Shown here: positions 1 to 27,500 of the stretch, one piece after another
Position numbering within the stretch: position 1 is the stretch's first letter
Layout of the letters: every line of letters begins with the position of its first letter
Source of the DNA: Fistulifera solaris
Lineage: Eukaryota
DNA length: 64,000 nt
Direction: 5' to 3'
Assembly (NCBI GenBank): GCA_030295235.1
Contig: AP026126.1
Span: 1,798,001 to 1,862,000 of the forward strand
Notes under the pieces: generated by a model
The model's input: only the letters and a program-made list of their open reading frames with translations
The model's database searches: none
Told to the model about the DNA's origin: nothing
Made by a program: the position numbers and the translations under genes

Positions 1-362
1 CGCAATGTTAGGAAATATTGATCAGCGCCCAGAGGCCGGCAGGCGCCGGACTCGGGTAAACAGTACAGTTACGGAAGAGTCCACGATTTCCAGTTAAATC
101 ACATTAAGAAATTCCCTAGAGTACTTAAAGTCGTGAATTTTCAAAGTAGAAAAATATGCTTAATTAGGATAAAACCAATTGCACGTTGGAGTACCGCCTG
201 CGATTTCATCATGATAGTAAAATCTCGCTCTTACAGTCACATAACGCCAACACGGCTTTTGAGCGAGCACTTGGATCACAAACCTCCACCTTTCGTACCC
301 GTCCATTCAGAGCTTGGGAAACTTCTGTACAAACAATAAACCAAGCTTTGAAGTGATTAACC

Positions 363-19084: not shown

Positions 19085-20278
19085 CTACTTCTTCGACAGA
19101 TGATAGGCTCCGAACATATCTTTGTCTTCATCGGTGTCCTGGAGACGCCGATCAACTTCCAGGAACGGAGGAAGATCAACTTCAGGCTCCGCTTTTCCCG
19201 AAGCTTCCACCTGGGCGTGTAAGATACACAGCCCTTCCTTGGGTGACTGAAAGATATGAACGACAAAGCTTTGCTTGTTGTACAAAAAGCTTATACGTCG
19301 CTGTTGTACAACATGACGACTCGTGTCGCGAGTTGCCGATGTGGACATGTACTCTCGTTCAGATATTATGCGCTTTTGCTCGATCAATTCTCCGTCCTCG
19401 GTCCATTGCGCCAATGTAGATTGATACACACTACCGAGACGTCGACCGTCGGGATCAATATTAGTTCTTCGACGAATGAAGCTGTAGCTGCTTTTATCGT
19501 CGTGAATATGCTTCAGATAGATCTTTTCCACTTCAAATTCTTTGTATGCGATTTCAGGAGGAAACTTCGAGAGATCAGGCTTGCTTTTCAGCAAGAATTT
19601 CGCAGATCGACGCTTCAAGTTGGATGGGAGGCCTACAATCTTGCTCAATGTGTCTACCAAGCGTGACATTTTCCCCTCAAAATCAGTAGAATTGTCGATG
19701 AAGTAAAAGTGCGGATGTCCTACCCATGCATTTTGTGTTTTTTGATCTACTTCACGTGCTTCTTCCTTCGTTTCTGTGCGAACTTTGTTGTTTTCAAGTG
19801 TATAAAAGGGCTCCGCACCGTCTGCAGCTGTTATAAGATGGAAAATAGCGTCGTATCGATTGTCACGAATCTGCACAATGTGGGTGTCCATCTCGCTCAG
19901 CAAGTCTGAAAACTCCTTCTGCGGCATGTACACACTCCCATCCATCGTCCCACGATCACAGAGCATGACTCCAGGTTTACCTCTTGCTTTTAATACACGA
20001 TGAATACCATCTTCTAGTGCCATTTGAACTTCCAAAACGGTTCGCTGAATCACTTTGGGCATACCCTGTGTCGAAAAGAAATCAACATTCATGCCGTTGG
20101 AAGACAGCGTCGTATAAGCCTCCGGACATGTGATGCACTCGAACCCTCGTTCACGCAAGTAAGAGAAGACTCGCGCGAGTGCAGTCGTCTTTCCACCGCA
20201 GGGACCACCCGTAAAGACAAATCGGAAAATGGGCGGGCCGTCCGTGGCATTGAGGTTTCGCTCCGCTTCGGTTGACAT
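19085..20278 (-). CDS. TTD14-like protein (AAA_28/NadR-type P-loop plus CYTH-like domain)
   Basis: VFTGGPCGGKTT Walker A, CDRG, RYDAIFHL.TAADGAE, AWVGHP; C-terminal EVEKIYL...IRRR. Confidence 0.85.
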   Translation of the reverse strand: MSTEAERNLNATDGPPIFRFVFTGGPCGGKTTALARVFSYLRERGFECITCPEAYTTLSSNGMNVDFFSTQGMPKVIQRTVLEVQMALEDGIHRVLKARGKPGVMLCDRGTMDGSVYMPQKEFSDLLSEMDTHIVQIRDNRYDAIFHLITAADGAEPFYTLENNKVRTETKEEAREVDQKTQNAWVGHPHFYFIDNSTDFEGKMSRLVDTLSKIVGLPSNLKRRSAKFLLKSKPDLSKFPPEIAYKEFEVEKIYLKHIHDDKSSYSFIRRRTNIDPDGRRLGSVYQSTLAQWTEDGELIEQKRIISEREYMSTSATRDTSRHVVQQRRISFLYNKQSFVVHIFQSPKEGLCILHAQVEASGKAEPEVDLPPFLEVDRRLQDTDEDKDMFGAYHLSKK

Positions 20279-20745
20279 TGTTATTATGTGTTCTTGTTTT
20301 TTAATCGTTTATCCGTACGGTCAGTCAAGTCAGTGACAGTTATAGATACATTACTCCGTATGTTGGTTTGGAAGTCACAGTGATGATGGAAGATCCCCTT
20401 TCGTCCTCTTGTTCTTCTTTGCCATGAACCACAAAAAAATCACGTCATTCGGACAAGTTGTTCTCGCGTTGTGAATGGTTGACGCCCTATGACGTCATTC
20501 TTGTGTTTGCCCGTCATCGGTCCACACGACCTGCGATCTGCGATCTATACTGTACCAGTACCGGTACGGTCGGCTAAAACGAATCGATCAAGCTATCGCT
20601 GTAGCGTCGAAACACATTTCTCGTAGGACTGCTCTAAAAATAAGGACGCGCATTACGAAAGACAATAAAAGATCAAATGATGAATGCACGATATTTAAAC
20701 ACTGCAAATGAGCACAGGTGTCCACCACTAAAAGGAAGCTTTCCA

Positions 20746-23701
20746 CTACGCCGTCTCGGCTGGGCACATCTTGTATAACAATGCATGCAATCTATACATT
20801 GCTGGACCTTTGACATAATGAAAGGCAACACTCTTTGGAGAACAGTGCTCGGGACCTTCGAAAACAGCGTGAATGGGATGAGAAAAAAGGAGGAATGGTG
20901 CTAAACAAAGGTCACGATACACACTAACCTTCTTTGATATTGATTGAATACTTTGCATACCAATCCGCGCTAGGGTCTGCCGGTAATCTATAGCCTGTGG
21001 ATTATAATAACAAAGTTAATGTAAGCACTTAAATGAGCGGACATGACACGAACCTGCGATATAGCACAAGCATAGCCACTTACCCCAATGATGACCCGGC
21101 ATGAACGGCATGTACCGCTCACTTCCATTTTCATCTTTGGTTTCATACGGAAGTACACCAAACTTGCGGAATATTCGCGCTACCAGGGTATCTTCTGAAA
21201 ATGTGTGAGCGTTGGGAAAGAATTCGGGAAGTCCTTTAACAACCAAAGTTTTCAGAGCCGCCTTATTCATTGTATAACCAGAGCCACCCGAGATGAAAAT
21301 ATCATTCATATCACCCTGATACGCGAAACGGCGACCCATGAACAGAGGAGTCTGGACGGTTTCAGTTCCATCCGGCAAGTATATGCCACCATTGGATGCG
21401 GTGCGGATTTCCTCACTTTCAAGATACTCGCGCAAGTTCTCCACAAGTAAGTATAGATCGTCACCGCCGATGTGAAAGAAGTCGTACTTCTCATAGTAGT
21501 TGTCATACACATAGCTCCACATACTACGAACTTTCTGCCAAATATTGTTGTATTCCTCAGGACCTTGGTGGACGATGTTCACAGTTCCTAAACTCACGTC
21601 TGTTTTATTCGAGGCGACAATGAATCCATCGCATTTTTGACTGATGACGACAAAGCTGGTTAGATTTTCTGTTGACATAAGTCAGGTGCGAACACGTCAG
21701 TTTCACTTACCCCCAAGTTTCTCGGATGGCTGGAATTCGTGGGTGACCACTATCGATTGTGTAAACCAAACAAAAGATCTTGGCGCGCTTGTTTCCTGAC
21801 TTTGCCATTTCTTTATCGTATTCCATATCGACGTGAACCCTCTCGGTCAACATTTTGTAGTTGTTGTCACGCTTTGCGCACTCGCTGATGAGCTCTTCGC
21901 CGGCCATGTGGAAATCGGGAGGATTCTTTCGCAACGCTGTTTCGTCGGCAACGTACCCAAAATTACCCGCTTCGTCAGTCGCGCCGATGTGAGGGTGTTC
22001 CTTGTGTCCACCGCTCACGTCGACGTAGGCGATGTCGATTGGCTGTGCTTGTTGAATAATCTTCAAGCATTCATCACAAAGAGGCTTCGACGGTTTCGCT
22101 TTGTCAAAACGTTGTGGGATTTTTACCTCTTCATCTTCTTCCTCCGTGGGCTTCTTAACATCATTCTGTTGAGCACCCCGTTCTACTTTTTGAGGAATGA
22201 TTATTTCTGGTTCTTTCTTTGGCTCGGCAGCAGCAATGACCTTTTCGGGTTCTTTCTTCTGTTCCTTCGCCTTTTCGTTTGTCTCAACCTGTTTCGGTGT
22301 CTCTTTTTCTTTCTGTGCTTCTTTAACTTCCTCTTCAATGATGCCCGGTTCTGACAAGATCGAAGTAACTCCCGGATTGATTTGCTCGGCATACCACTGA
22401 AACGAACGACACCGCGTCGGCAAGTCCGGTGTAAAGGTCGGATTTTGTCGAGCCTCCGCCATGAAGGTATGCCACTCCAAAGCGGTCATATCGGGGTGAG
22501 TCTTGGAATACGCATGAAAGAATTTGCGGCCCGTGACTTCATCCATCCACGCCGCCGCGAACCGGGCGGCCATGGCCGGAGACAAAGGCGCCGGAGCGCG
22601 TGGTTCCTTGTAGGTTACATCTACATCACTTAACATGTCAATACCATCCGCACACAACCACAGATTCAATGCTAAATCCAAATTAGCCGTCCATGCGTCC
22701 TCCAATGACCAATCCTGAATGGGCAAATTTAAATAAGTCTCCAGACGCATGGCCATGGCCGCTCCATTGAATGCGGGTGTCGGATACGAGGCCCCACTGG
22801 ATCGATTGATTTCCGTAGGATCCGCATCCAATATCTGGGCTCGGAAGGTAGCATCAAAGCCCGTGCATTTGGAAGGTCCTTCCGTATTAAACGACACGGC
22901 ATTTGCGAGTTTGAGTGTTTGGTGCTCAAGTAAGGGAGGTGGCACAATAAGTGCTTCGGTCACCGCATCGAGCCACGTCCGCACGATCAACTGCGCTCCA
23001 CCCTGCAATAGCATCAGAATGAAATCTTCTTCGGACGATTTCAATCCATTCTCTTCGTAATGTTTTTGCAAAATCTTAATAAACTCGACCGCATCCGCGC
23101 GACTCTCGGCAACACCCCGACGATCCGTATTGAACATGACATGTATCTTATTGCCGTGTGATTCTTCGTCTTTATTGTTTTGTGGCTGTGTGGGATGAAC
23201 ATCGGCACGAAAGCCGTGCCAGTGCGGAACTTCACCTTGGTCGATGCCTTGAAACCGCTCGAGTAATGCATCATCCTGTTCATGACCATCCACAACGACT
23301 GTCACAATGAAAATGCGATTCAAGTCCGTTTTACTGAAAATGGACTCGACAGTCGCCACCAACTGCTCGGGATCGTCTCCAACGACGGCAAATGCGACAC
23401 GCGGATGGGTTGGCCCGTAGCCCATGACATCGACTCGATCGAGGACATTGCGAAGATTCGAGCGCAATTTAGAAGTAAGACTTAAACCACTGTGTTGCTG
23501 TGATAATTCAAAGCTGTTTGTTGTCAATGGTACTTCTTCAACATGCGGAGCGGAAGCAGATAAGAGAGCCATCAATGCCAGAGGCCAAAAACAAGCGACG
23601 GCCAGCAGAATGTTGGCTCGTGTGTAATCGGCTTTGGGCTTGCCTGAGTTTCGGTTATTGCGGAGAACAGGTGTCGCCATTCTACTGATTTTGACTTTCA
23701 C
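20746..23701 (-). CDS. Bimodular glycosyltransferase: degenerate ppGalNAc-T-like (GT27) domain plus core-1 beta-1,3-galactosyltransferase-like (GT31) domain
   Basis: In-frame introns 21641-21710, 20995-21083 and 20856-20928. GT31 motifs IFCLVYT, TWGQKCD, YDFF..GDDLY..VENLR, SGGSGY, SED, VAFHYV. N-terminal hydrophobic anchor. Confidence 0.85.
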
Positions 23702-23852
23702 TTATTTTTGATTGATGACAATTGAAAGATAACACGCAATAAATAACGTGTATTACATCACTTCTTTCACACAATAGAAGAGAATGACCATGGCGACATG
23801 ATATTATTTTGTCGATGATTATTGCGCGAGAAAAGCTCGCTGCGGGATGTCT

Positions 23853-24283
23853 CATGACTGAAATTCAGTCGTGGCCAAATACGAAGACACTTCATTGCGT
23901 GCAATAGTAAAAACCGCTCCTCAATTTTGATCGAGCTGCGAATTGCACATGTAATTCAATGTGAGTTCAAGGAGCGAAGATAACAAATCCATTGCTTGAA
24001 AACGATAACATCATCTCAGAAATGTGAGAAGCACAAAATCGAGCAATGCATTGTTTGGTTCATGACTAAAATTCAATCGTGGAGAAAGGTCGTCTACATT
24101 TCGATCTACAGTAAAATGGCAATGATCGATCCAGAACGAATTTTGACATCAATACCCGAGATGTCAATTGCAAATGTGACACATCATGACTTTAAGACGC
24201 TTTGATTTGCTTGAACAGGAATAACATTATCACGGAGATGTTAGAAACACAAGAACGAGCCATCGACTGTTTCGGTTCATGAC
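23853..24283. repeat. Degenerate ~210-bp tandem duplication in a divergent intergenic region
   Basis: catgactRaaattcaRtcgtgg at 23853 and 24061; aattgcaNatgt at 23941 and 24166; acacaa...gagc...tgttt..ggttcatgac at ~24032 and ~24247. Confidence 0.65.
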
Positions 24284-24500: not shown

Positions 24501-27500
24501 ATGACTTCCCCCGGACCACAGACTGAAAAGATGTTGCAATTCGACACAGACGCGCCGACAGTGCAGGACGATCCGAAAGTATCGTTCGCGAGTAACGTGA
24601 GCACAGCGGAAGATTCGTCGAATCCTTATAGTAACAACACTGTAAGGTCCCCGGGTCCTATTGCTCCCTACAATTCGACTGATTACGGAGAATACGTATT
24701 ATCGGATGAAGATTACGAAAAGTTTTGGTTGACGGAGGAGGACGAAGAAGATGAAGCAGAGCTCAGACCCTCGCACAGTAACCTTACTGACACGGCAATA
24801 CAGGACAAAACAACTGCGGACGAACCAACGCTGCGCTTCCGATCGTATTCTCATGGTGATATATTGTCGAGACAGATACTCGCTACAGCGTCGGATGATG
24901 ACATGGCGGCGTATGCCGACGATGAGAGTGAAAAACAAATCAGCAGTAGTTCGACAACACTCCGTATGACCAATAAGACGTCACCGTCCAAGAAAAGCAG
25001 TCGTCTATCATCTTCTTTGACCTCACCCAACAAGAAGCGAAATCACACGCGATCGGCATCACTCAATGCAAAACCCTTTCTTCGTTACTTACGGAACTTT
25101 AAAGTCGGCCGAGAGAAACGTGACGCTGAAGGCAAAGAAACAGACGAGGATATGCCCAACGTGCACCGCGTGGTGGATGCTGATTCTTCCTCGTCGTCAC
25201 CTTCCATGCCCGATGATGGATGCGTGGACGATGAGGATGAAGAAGAGGAAGCAGGACAAGTTAATTTTATTCCGGCTGGTGCTAGTGAATACGATTCGTG
25301 GGATGAAAGTAGTTCTCTTGAACTCGATGAAGACATGGCACCCACAGCCGTGCATGATTGGGGGTCTCTTCCCCCGTTACCGAACAAATTCATTCCCAAT
25401 CCAGATCCCCGTGATACGCAAATGAATACTCGGAATATACCTTACTTGGATGCGGATATTCTGGAGGAATCCGAGCAAATGTCGAAACTGGATGCCAACA
25501 TTTTTGTTTTAGAACATGCTTTGCTGTTGCGGTCGGTCATGCAGTTGCTCATTGAGCGAGATCATATTGGTGTGGAAGGAAGTGTTGATGATATGGACAA
25601 TATAATCAAACGAGGGCCACTGAAGAAAACAACGTTCGCTGTAGGAAAACGAGGACACAAGAAAATTCGAGCGACTTGGGGTATAAAATACGTGGAGTTG
25701 CGTCGAGGAAATCTAACGTACTACGGAGATAATGCTAAGAACGGAGAGCGAAAAACTATTCACTTGCGACAGAAAGAAGCCGTCGTTCAAGAAAATACAG
25801 CATTAGATAGGGGCACCGATGGTTTTCCATTTGAGCTTTTGGTACAGGGCAACCCACCGCGGTATTGGATGGCGCGTTCCGAAGAAGAGCGACAGTCATG
25901 GATTAGGGCGATTGAGGCGGCCATGATTGGAGACGAAACGAGATCCACTCGTTCATTGGACCTGACACCTTACAGAATTTCTATCGATGCCTCGAGCAAG
26001 TTGAAAAGCACGCTAAGCCATGCTGCCACGAAAGACTCTTACATCAACGCGATCAAACATGTAAAAAAAAGAATTAGGGATTGATCAACCTCTTCAATTA
26101 CCTGTGCAATGGTTGAAGCAGCAGATGCAGCTGGAAACTAGCAAGGAAGAAGATACGAATCGAAATCCTTTAACTCGTCGAAACGTTCCACCCGATCGGG
26201 TCATCAAATTTTCGTTTCAACAATTTTGGAAATCGATGCACCAGTTAAATGCTTCGATCAATGGATTTGAAATACCACCTTCAAGTCCTGCGGCGCCAGA
26301 GCGGGTAGTCGGCTCCTTGACTCGATGTATATTGGAGTTTGATAAGGCAAATCAAAATCACAGTAACATACACGGCGCATCCAACGAAATATCTGAACTA
26401 CAAGCTGTCTCCTATGCGAGAATCATCCTGTCGTCAGTGCTGCAATCCAAAAAGGAAGGAGTTACTTTTGATGTGCTTCACCACTTTCTGCAACCACAAA
26501 GCGATGTGATTTGCATTTCTCAGGAACTTGAAGACGAAGCTGAATCGGCAACGCATTTTGAAGTTTCATTTGCCGGAGATGACCTTCCTGAGGATCTGTT
26601 TTTAGAAACTGACTATGAAAAGGATCAGTCAAGTTGGATATACCTAGCACGACGAAGGAACAAAAAGTGACAGTCCCCAAGAGCCGCTGGAGACGTCGTT
26701 ACGCTGTATTGTCAGGCGCGGTGCTGAGTTTCTATGAAGCTGCCACGCCACGTCCTCATGGTCTTCGCGGACAATTCGTGCTTTCTGGCCAATGCGAGGT
26801 TATTGCGCTAGAGACTTCGAAAGATACAGATGGATCGACGCTGGTTTCTCCCCGTGGGGATCTTCGATATGCTATTTGCATTTGCAGTCCTGGGGAGCAA
26901 GATTGTCTTTTGTGCTTTGAATATAAAGGGGATATGGAATCTTGGCAAGAAACTTTGGACCTACAAGTTCGAGCTTTGGCAGCTGCGAAGCAAGATACGA
27001 GTGAAGAGGTGATCGCATTATCTCGGCAAAAGAATGCGACTGGAATGTTGAAAGGTGCAGAGAGAGTTATAAAGGGCGCTGCTGACAGCGGTATACGTGT
27101 CGGTGGTCGTGTTATCAAAGGAGCAACTGATACAATGAAAAGTGCAACGGACGGCAGTATGAAAGTAGTGAAAAGAGCGACAGATGGTAGCATGAAAGCC
27201 ATGAGAAGAGCCACCGATAGCAGTATGAAGGTCATTCGCGGGGCTGTGAGAACATTTCGCTCAACGGGCAATCGTGACGAAGCCGAAGTTTCACATCCAA
27301 GAATCTCACGAGTCATACGCAAAGCGACGTCTTCACATTTGCTCTCCACTGCCACCGATTCAGGGAAGCGCGAGCCGTCAGTTCAGTGTATTGTACAGCG
27401 TTCTAGTACGTTTTCTATTCGATCGGCGCTGGCGAGAACAAAGCATTACTATGATGATGGTGACGATGATGAGGACGAAGACGACCACTGGCTGACGGTG

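Follow-up and report, generated by a model that had tools for sequence, protein, structure and literature searches.

Within a 64,000-nucleotide stretch of contig AP026126.1 from Fistulifera solaris (hereafter the window), we found a single gene that fuses two glycosyltransferase domains from different families. The gene lies on the minus strand at window positions 20746..23680 and has four exons. It is predicted to encode a type II membrane protein of 900 amino acids. Its parts, in order, are a short N-terminal tail, a signal anchor, a domain of the glycosyltransferase A (GT-A) fold, a disordered linker rich in Glu, Lys, and Pro, a folded stem, and a C-terminal domain of glycosyltransferase family 31 (GT31) that resembles the core-1 galactosyltransferase C1GalT1. 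The first of the two GT-A domains resembles family 27 (GT27), the polypeptide N-acetylgalactosamine (GalNAc) transferases (ppGalNAc-T), and has lost the residues that carry out GT27 chemistry. This architecture and the degeneracy of the N-terminal domain (N-domain) are near certain. GT27 enzymes make GalNAc-Ser/Thr, and C1GALT1 extends GalNAc-Ser/Thr. We interpret the whole package as an active C1GalT1-like enzyme with a GT27-derived pseudo-glycosyltransferase as its accessory module, probably for acceptor recognition. We give this interpretation a probability of roughly 0.6. Throughout, papers are cited for those of their passages that treat the point in question.

The N-domain, the linker, the stem, and the first strand of the GT31 domain are encoded in one frame. 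The open reading frame (ORF) at 21707..23680 on the minus strand runs for 657 amino acids from an ATG at 23680 and closes at ...IRETWG, immediately at a GTAAGT donor. We read three introns from the sequence, not from RNA of this organism, and their ends are GTAAGT..CAG, GTAAGT..CAG, and GTTAGT..AAG. Searches of four full-length relatives against the window with tblastn confirmed all three. The spliced product has 2703 nucleotides (900 codons plus the stop codon at 20746-20748) and contains 0 internal stops. It is collinear with full-length relatives from end to end, and is 58% identical to the 900-amino-acid relative P0023 across residues 1-900.

A preliminary description, made from the letters of the window, had proposed one gene in which a GT-A domain of degenerate GT27 type is joined to a GT31 domain resembling C1GalT1, and the spliced frame, the profile searches, and Foldseek all bear this out. 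The limits it gave, 20746 and 23701, are real: the first is the last base of the stop codon and the second is the upstream stop-to-stop boundary. All seven strings that it quoted from the N-terminal half, as well as LLQGGAQ and WTAN, are found in the ORF at 21707..23680. It had also described the E/K/P-rich linker as leading toward the GT31 domain in the same ORF, and this is what we observed: the linker occupies residues 446-530, and the ORF then goes on to the first GT31 strand. Its placement of the C-terminal half in that ORF is correct for this first strand; the rest lies in three further exons that it did not mention.

Sequence, profile, and structure comparisons all connect the N-domain to GT27. 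Searched as a single sequence against the PDB, the N-terminal half had its best match in GALNT4, a weak one with an expectation value (E) of 0.011. The alignment pairs WTAN with WGGEN, NLDLALNLWLC with NLELSFRVWQC, AAWMDE with EVWMDE, and CRSFQWY with CKSFDWY. A profile built from 30 family members matched 15 ppGalNAc-T sequences at E 1.7e-7 to 3.9e-3 through profile positions 285-442. These were 15 of its 18 PDB matches at E <= 0.1; the remaining three, C1GalT1 and two chondroitin synthase 3 chains, came from the GT31 half. When a second profile was made from exon-1-type sequences alone, all 15 PDB matches below E 0.01 were ppGalNAc-T (15/15), and no further glycosyltransferase family appeared up to E 10.

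We modelled residues 66-445 with AlphaFold2 (AF2) from a 49-sequence alignment. The model has a predicted local distance difference test score (pLDDT) of 85.1 and a predicted template modelling score (pTM) of 0.84. When Foldseek compared this model with the PDB, all listed ranks between 1 and 49 were ppGalNAc-T (E 3.3e-15 to 2e-10, template modelling (TM) scores 0.54-0.60, 372-395 aligned columns). In a language-model Atlas, the top cluster carried PF00535 and PF02709, the GT27 pair, with a score of 0.96; clusters with PF11397 (GT60) came at ranks 23 and 26, behind GT27-type clusters. Two profiles and Foldseek therefore agree on the GT27/GT-A match that the preliminary description had proposed for this half. 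Pfam and NCBIfam returned nothing usable for exon 1 and exon 2 (an S_100 match below the cutoff and one noise match). PF00535, PF02709, and PF11397 had 0 matches in exon 1 of the window and 0/30 among the family members. Judging from sequence and model, the N-domain is a GT-A fold with a GT27-type C-terminal extension, and its nearest family is GT27. Most GT27 members end in a C-terminal ricin-type lectin domain. This domain is absent after the N-domain, and the linker and the GT31 domain are found there instead.

The residues that define GT27 catalysis are gone from the N-domain. Residue counts given here and below refer to 59 full-length relatives; the window's own spliced protein stands outside that alignment, and its motifs were located separately. 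HMMER alignments place WTAN at the GT27 motif WGGEN, and the topology of the model places LLQGGAQ at the site of the DxH motif, both as the preliminary description had it. The Glu of WGGEN is essential in GT27; the window has Ala in its place, and the relatives have A47 S9 V2 L1 in this column. At the DxH site, the first position reads R25 Q19 E6 H4 K3 S2 and the third reads G34 D24 E1 across the relatives, with DxH itself in 0/59. Window residues 220-237 contain no Asp, Glu, or His. GT27 chemistry uses DxH together with a metal-binding C-terminal His (C-His) (PMC7185993). The stretch that follows CADGID, which aligns to CSRVGH (GT27 CSxVGH), is variable and has no His column in the 59 relatives. 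A sub-threshold alignment also shows a deletion of the HNE stretch that follows strand 1. All three GT27 metal ligands and the WGGEN Glu are thus missing in the window and in 59/59 relatives. From the sequences, it is well supported that the N-domain is degenerate for GT27-type chemistry.

The N-domain is nevertheless constrained. It shares 45-64% identity with distant relatives, and about 45 of its positions never vary among 49 sequences. The two Cys positions matched to cysteines of GT27 are likewise invariant. In the CxDGxD motif, C, D, G, and D are each present in 59/59 relatives, and the longer pattern W-x-C-x-D-G-x-D is also invariant (59/59).

A family-specific, His-rich beta-hairpin is inserted between helix 2 and strand 3 (strands 88-90 and 93-95 in AF2 model numbering), and a conserved His, H175 in the window, follows it. 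Across the relatives, in P0028 numbering, H145 is present in 57, H147 in 54, H154 in 49, and H170 in 56, and position 152 is D28/H24. The [D/H]xH of the hairpin reads D-x-H in pennate-type and H-x-H in centric-type sequences. Together with H175, the hairpin may form a metal site, which could be structural, or it may offer a binding surface. By GT-A topology, the insertion should face away from the active site. The preliminary description had called the N-domain a pseudoenzyme, a term that an intact DxH elsewhere in the domain would put in question. The canonical site stands as described, but with a [D/H]xH in the conserved hairpin, the term applies to GT27-type chemistry only. A separate candidate for a displaced DxH, D131-G-H133 at the end of strand 2, was rejected: its His is present in 8/59 relatives, and the site corresponds to the end of the GT27 nucleotide-binding VDD strand.

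The GT31 domain is closest to C1GalT1 by every comparison made against the PDB. The translation of exon 2 alone matched Drosophila C1GalT1 (DmC1GalT1, 7q4i) at E 2.3e-17, followed by chondroitin synthase 3 (CHSY3) at E 5e-5. The 30-member family profile matched 7q4i at E 1.9e-37 over 268 positions, and Foldseek with the model of the full-length relative P0028 placed 7q4i at ranks 1-2 (E 1.7e-18, TM score 0.79-0.80 on the target, 26% identity). Pfam found its Fringe family in 1/30 family members. Among the full-length diatom relatives listed, identity in exon 2 is 64-86%, apart from an outlier at 55% (P0155, 1048 amino acids). This level of identity fits an enzyme under strong constraint.

We took residue roles from PMC9065035, mapped them via the printed DmC1GalT1 alignment, and then counted them in the relatives. 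Most of the active site is retained. The Glu254-Asp255 pair of the xED motif, which includes the catalytic base, is kept in 57/57 ungapped relatives, and C-His324 is kept in 53/55. In the glycine-rich loop, SGGSGY aligns to SGGAGY with each Gly in 58/58. E150 is kept in 58/59, K158 in 59/59, S220 in 57/58, W300 in 54/54, and Y304 in 54/56. The window keeps five of the seven residues that contact GalNAc or peptide (S220, D255, W300, Y304, and Y325). Tyr218 is replaced by Phe (58/58), and Tyr213 is Asp in the window and D32/N26 among the 59 relatives. In a Cyclotella cryptica gene model (P0152), we observed an insertion of about 35 amino acids within the otherwise invariant SGGSGYTMNK..AALKTL; it resembles an unspliced intron in the annotation.

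The GT31 domain departs from C1GalT1 at the metal and diphosphate site. In DmC1GalT1, Asp181 and Asp183 bind Mn2+, Asp182 binds ribose, and Arg152 binds pyrophosphate (PMC9065035). All 59 relatives read GGDD, and the window has the same G-D-D (within 21457-21468), so that Asp181 is Gly while Asp182 and Asp183 are kept. Arg152 is Tyr in the window (in the stretch 21532-21558) and in 58/59 relatives. The preliminary description had taken this half as a canonical core-1 synthase, which does not agree with a DxD that reads G-D-D and a Tyr in place of Arg152. On the residue pattern, the GT31 domain is probably active, with a variant metal and diphosphate site. The pattern of contact residues is compatible with an N-acetylhexosamine (HexNAc)-Ser/Thr acceptor but is no proof of one. 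In DmC1GalT1, the hydroxyl of Tyr218 is one of two contacts to O4 (PMC9065035), and its loss would be at least compatible with an N-acetylglucosamine (GlcNAc)-alpha-Ser/Thr acceptor.

The remaining parts describe how the two domains would be held together. A hydrophobic N-terminal stretch such as the one found here is the usual signal anchor of type II Golgi glycosyltransferases. In P0028, the equivalent stretch is modelled as a long helix (16-43), and an ACxWP motif in the anchor region is conserved among relatives. We infer a type II topology in the Golgi or endoplasmic reticulum (ER) membrane, with both domains luminal. The linker varies in length and sequence among relatives, and its pLDDT is <50 in the P0028 model. 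The stem of about 100 amino acids is modelled with confidence (pLDDT 93-97 for the equivalent residues 505-600 of P0028). It carries CxxC and HxEHPH motifs, and searches gave no Pfam family and no usable Atlas match for it. We regard the stem as part of the GT31 module because it is also present in GT31 paralogues without the N-domain. The AF2 model of full-length P0028 has a mean pLDDT of 87.8 and a pTM of just 0.52, as would be expected of two bodies that are each well folded but have no fixed placement relative to one another. A complex prediction of the P0028 N-domain with its stem and GT31 domain scored 0.00; it was run without a family alignment, and we count it neither for nor against binding.

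The family is found in diatoms. A search with exon 1 returned 164 homologous proteins, and the best 120 of 164 all had E < 1e-143. The closest relative match, P0002, shares 94% identity. Every source that names an organism among the relatives names a diatom, as the preliminary description had guessed for the origin of this DNA. Relatives of exon 1 come from Mayamaea, Epithemia, Seminavis, Nitzschia, Cylindrotheca, Pseudo-nitzschia, and Bacillariaceae. The exon-2 search added fused proteins from the centrics Conticribra weissflogii, Thalassiosira profunda, Skeletonema menzelii, Stephanodiscus, Stephanocyclus, Cyclotella cryptica, and Chaetoceros tenuissimus. The survey across diatoms that the preliminary description had suggested thus shows the fusion, including several genome models, to be common to pennates and centrics. 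Five MMETSP transcripts of 872-1035 amino acids are labelled 'type:complete' (P0059, P0087, P0133, P0144, and P0160). Of these, the two whose sequences were read, P0059 and P0087, hold both domains. The single transcript expected by the preliminary description is therefore supported at the level of the family, by evidence from organisms other than this one.

A profile search of 1.84 billion representatives returned 466 proteins at E <= 0.001, the best 150 of 466 all being family members, and a search with region 1-380 of the divergent fused protein P0274 returned 4 proteins. By the profile search, the family is small and restricted. Database labels of its members read 'hypothetical protein' or are taken from the GT31 half alone. 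Our full-text literature searches found no paper describing a GT27-like plus GT31 architecture. For Fragilaria, the relevant passage of one paper mentions a KEGG-type 'C1GALT1' label and nothing more (PMC9732472).

Some members of the family lack the N-domain. Among 133 proteins with GGDD, 79 have the N-domain motif and 54 do not. We built a tree from 78/133, namely 59 fused proteins (>=780 amino acids) and 19 short ones (<=560 amino acids, with a Met start and without the N-domain motif). The other 55/133 were left out because their class was unclear or their sequence did not fully cover the domain region. In this quick, unrooted FastTree phylogeny of the stem and GT31 domain, short forms are interspersed with fused ones, with 11 changes, at least 8 of which are forced by starred branches. 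Fifteen of the 19 short forms have a hydrophobic N-terminus of their own. The four that have none (P0134, P0146, P0154, and P0305) are probably fragments of fused proteins. The anchored short forms include a well-supported clade of five members that contains the source-labelled complete transcript P0171. The plain reading of these sequences is that there were several losses of the N-domain and that a GT31 module is able to exist on its own, with the caveat that gene models can be wrong. The short protein P0125 and the fused P0053, both of Nitzschia inconspicua, have similar N-terminal anchors, and P0125 looks like the product of an N-domain deletion. Further short proteins with a transmembrane segment, stem, and GT31 domain include P0166, P0174, P0165, and P0195.

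Table 1 Positions of the gene and its features in the window.
Feature	Residues	Window position	Strand	Basis or remark
Exons 1-4		23680-21711, 21640-21084, 20994-20929, 20855-20746 (stop included)	minus	sequence and tblastn
Introns 1-3		21710-21641, 21083-20995, 20928-20856	minus	70, 89, 73 nucleotides
N-terminal signal anchor (predicted)	~22-45	23546..23617	minus	hydrophobic fraction 0.82 over residues 22-43
GT27-like GT-A domain	~77-445	22346..23452	minus	profile, Foldseek, AF2
Family-specific His-rich beta-hairpin, helix 2 to strand 3	P152-HWHGFRADV-H162	23195..23227	minus	AF2 model
Conserved His following the hairpin	H175	23156-23158	minus	
GT27 DxH site, end of fourth strand	Q226-G227-G228	22997..23005	minus	model strand 155-161, residues 220-226 (FILMLLQ), then G-G-A-Q
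Motif aligned to WGGEN, Glu replaced by Ala	W330-T-A-N333	22682..22693	minus	HMMER alignments
Invariant CxDGxD, aligned to GT27 CGGxLE	C343-A-D-G-I-D348	22637..22654	minus	alignment to CGGSLEIIPCSRVGH
E/K/P-rich disordered linker	446-530	22091..22345	minus	composition E 20, K 17, P 8 of 85
Conserved folded stem	531-633	21782..22090	minus	PLCxxCL at 22064-22084, HKEHPH at 21989-22006
GT31 C1GalT1-like catalytic domain, over exons 1-4	634-900	20749..21781	minus	
Motif aligned to DmC1GalT1 DxD (D181-D182-D183)	G716-D717-D718	21457..21465	minus	first Asp replaced by Gly
xED with catalytic base, aligned to Asp255	FSEDT	21187..21201	minus	
C-His, aligned to His324-Tyr325	AFHYV	20812..20826	minus	

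We propose that catalysis would fall to the GT31 domain as an inverting beta-1,3-hexosyltransferase, probably a galactosyltransferase. It would most likely extend HexNAc-alpha-Ser/Thr on mucin-like proteins, with its metal held by the C-His and the Asp that is left. The N-domain, derived from GT27, would be incapable of GT27 chemistry, yet selected for. On its flexible tether, it would recognise or hold the (glyco)peptide acceptor and so target the GT31 domain to Ser/Thr-rich substrates that bear HexNAc. Because it descends from an enzyme that binds peptides and glycopeptides, the N-domain is a natural candidate for acceptor recognition. The lectin domain of ppGalNAc-transferases does a comparable acceptor-targeting job. 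Taken on its own, this role of the N-domain is tentative, and we hold it at somewhat under even odds.

Several points weigh against this interpretation. The DxH column was placed by GT-A topology and lies outside every printed alignment. A basic residue (Arg or Lys) stands at the first position of the old DxH in 28/59 relatives, and, given the His-rich hairpin as well, the N-domain might be re-tooled for another activity and not dead. The domain may also descend from GT60, the sister family of GT27, and not from GT27 itself. Deprived of Asp181 and Arg152, the GT31 domain could be impaired, could use another donor, or could be metal-independent. The stand-alone GT31 paralogues show that the accessory domain is dispensable in at least some members. 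Finally, the two domains of B3GLCT, the GT31 beta-1,3-glucosyltransferase compared below, pack into one acceptor cleft (PMC13597200), whereas a long disordered linker separates them here, which makes that analogy a functional one only.

The hairpin above all, and the basic residue, lead to an alternative in which the N-domain is a working, non-canonical glycosyltransferase. It would act without a metal through the basic residue at the old DxH, or use the hairpin as a relocated metal site, and the protein would be bifunctional, both starting and extending the O-glycan. The strong conservation of the domain would fit such an activity, as would the Arg or Lys in 28/59 relatives, the cluster H145, H147, [D/H]152, H154, and H170 that is conserved in 49-57 of 59, and a conserved Arg in G-x-x-x-S-R that aligns to R-x-G-L-x-x-x-R of GT27. 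There is also a precedent, as GT14 and bacterial GT6 enzymes are active despite the loss of DxD, those of GT14 via basic side chains (PMC7185993). However, any of R, Q, E, H, K, and S may stand at the old DxH position (Q in the window), a freedom that does not resemble a residue essential to catalysis. The domain has also lost its C-His and the Glu of WGGEN, the HNE stretch is deleted in the sub-threshold alignment, and topology would put the hairpin on the face away from the active site. We consider this alternative unlikely, if worth keeping in view. The related idea of a re-tooled, GT27-type front domain that binds metal or a nucleotide sugar, via the hairpin or via the basic residue at the old DxH, seems to us distinctly unlikely.

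The preliminary description had offered a built-in chaperone, analogous to Cosmc, as one role for the N-domain, and a folding or stabilising partner of the GT31 domain, or a scaffold for dimers or complexes, would be an alternative to acceptor binding. Vertebrate C1GalT1 does require the pseudo-glycosyltransferase Cosmc, which lacks DxD (PMC9065035, PMC7185993), and the fusion is conserved across diatoms. Cosmc is, however, a GT31 paralogue, not a GT27-like domain, and invertebrate C1GalT1 needs no chaperone (PMC9065035). Neither the long disordered linker nor the pTM of 0.52 points to a fixed interface. Anchored stand-alone proteins with a transmembrane segment, stem, and GT31 domain are nested among the fused forms, which speaks against a chaperone that is obligatory in cis, although the N-domain could still act in trans. 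On balance, we doubt such a role and regard it as quite improbable. A protein with both halves catalytically dead, which would serve as a lectin-like or structural luminal protein, might explain why the GT31 domain lacks the Mn-ligand Asp181 and the pyrophosphate-binding Arg152, and why Pfam recognises Fringe in just 1/30 members. It fits poorly with a catalytic base, C-His, glycine-rich loop, and uracil-, ribose-, and GalNAc-contacting residues that are nearly invariant, and with the very high identity across diatoms. Cosmc, a known dead GT31 protein, has lost both DxD and xED (PMC7185993), which is not the case here. We therefore consider two dead halves very improbable. The fusion could also be an artefact of two adjacent genes read as one, or of a chance ORF, as the splice sites come from the DNA and not from RNA of this organism. 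But a single ORF runs from the N-domain through the linker and stem to the first strand of GT31, the reading frame continues across canonical introns, and the complete-labelled transcripts P0059 and P0087 as well as several genome models hold both domains, which reduces an artefact to a negligible chance.

Many database relatives of about 630-680 amino acids are the exon-1 ORF alone, ending in ...ETWG. As the sequences indicate, intron-blind gene callers truncate the gene at the first donor and split off the GT31 core. The neighbours of the gene in the window are unrelated to it. Downstream, at 19085-20278 on the minus strand, lies a single-exon gene for a 397-amino-acid protein with an AAA_28 P-loop domain (E 2.3e-24) and a C-terminal half without assignment. 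Upstream, the divergent gene at 24501-26084 on the plus strand encodes 527 amino acids; the N-terminal half is acidic and rich in Ser, and the protein has a PH domain (E 6.3e-9). A scan of window positions 20500-24000 for tandem repeats found none.

The preliminary description had presented the two halves as steps 1 and 2 of mucin-type O-glycosylation by way of GalNAc. This is an analogy rather than a finding: in the relevant passages of a review, protists other than apicomplexans begin mucin-type glycans with GlcNAc through GT60, not with GalNAc through GT27, and GT27 is given as absent from them (PMC8724618). A GT27-like fold that is kept in both pennate and centric diatoms bears on this view. 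The preliminary description had also placed the protein in the synthesis of adhesive or cell-wall glycoproteins of diatoms, a link that nothing in our analysis supports. Diatom O-glycosylation is almost uncharted, and a review of microalgal glycosylation holds no diatom O-glycan data in the passages concerned (PMC7773692). The family described here offers a specific candidate, present across diatoms, for the step in which mucin-type glycans are extended. If our interpretation is correct, it would represent a second, independently evolved GT31 enzyme with an inactivated GT-A domain, this one borrowed from the family that carries out the preceding step of the animal pathway. The principle has precedent, as GT31 domains with an inactivated accessory GT-A domain (PMC13597200) and pseudo-glycosyltransferases such as Cosmc (PMC7185993) are known. 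Both halves escape Pfam, and the N-domain stays unannotated. The invariant G-D-D, together with the change from Arg to Tyr, offers a natural test of how much of the DxD a C1GalT1-type enzyme needs. Were the N-domain instead active in re-tooled form, one polypeptide would start and extend a mucin-type O-glycan, and GT27-type initiation would exist in the diatom lineage, outside animals and apicomplexans.

Several known systems can be compared with the protein. Chondroitin synthases of the CHSY/CHPF type likewise have two GT-A domains per chain, one of them GT31-like. They differ in having the GT31 domain first and a GT7 domain second, and the match to CHSY3 is far weaker than that to C1GalT1 (E 5e-5 vs 2e-17). 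Like Cosmc (C1GALT1C1), the N-domain is a glycosyltransferase fold without DxD beside a C1GalT1-type enzyme; but Cosmc belongs to GT31 as a paralogue, comes from a gene of its own, and acts as a chaperone in the ER, whereas the diatom domain is GT27-like and part of the same chain as its partner. With GT27 ppGalNAc-transferases, the N-domain shares the fold, similarity over the C-terminal catalytic half (the WGGEN..CGG..WMDE..CxxFxWY block), and both Cys positions. In contrast to them, it lacks DxH, C-His, the WGGEN Glu, and the lectin domain, has an added His-rich hairpin, and is missed by PF00535 and PF02709. GT60 is a sister family of GT27 that uses DxH, has no lectin domain, and is reported in diatom genomes (PMC8724618, PMC7185993). 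The N-domain could plausibly have arisen from this family instead, and GT60 enzymes could plausibly make the acceptor on which the GT31 domain would act.

DmC1GalT1 (7q4i) is the closest known protein to the GT31 half in sequence and fold. The xED base, C-His, glycine-rich loop, S220, W300, Y304, E150, K158, D182, and D183 are kept in the diatom proteins, which differ from it in four replacements (D181 by Gly, R152 by Tyr, Y218 by Phe, and Y213 by Asp), in the extra folded stem of about 100 amino acids, and in the fused second GT-A domain. The other comparison is with B3GLCT, also of GT31 and the nearest analogue whose working is understood. Its extra N-terminal GT-A domain binds neither uridine diphosphate (UDP) nor Mn2+ and has none of the motifs DxD, C-His, and xED, yet the enzyme cannot bind its acceptor without it (PMC13597200). 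The diatom protein resembles B3GLCT in that a GT31 domain, here of predicted activity, is preceded in the same chain by a GT-A domain stripped of its metal and nucleotide-sugar machinery. It differs in the origin of that domain: the extra domain of B3GLCT duplicates its own GT31 domain (PMC13597200), whereas that of the diatom protein is GT27-like.

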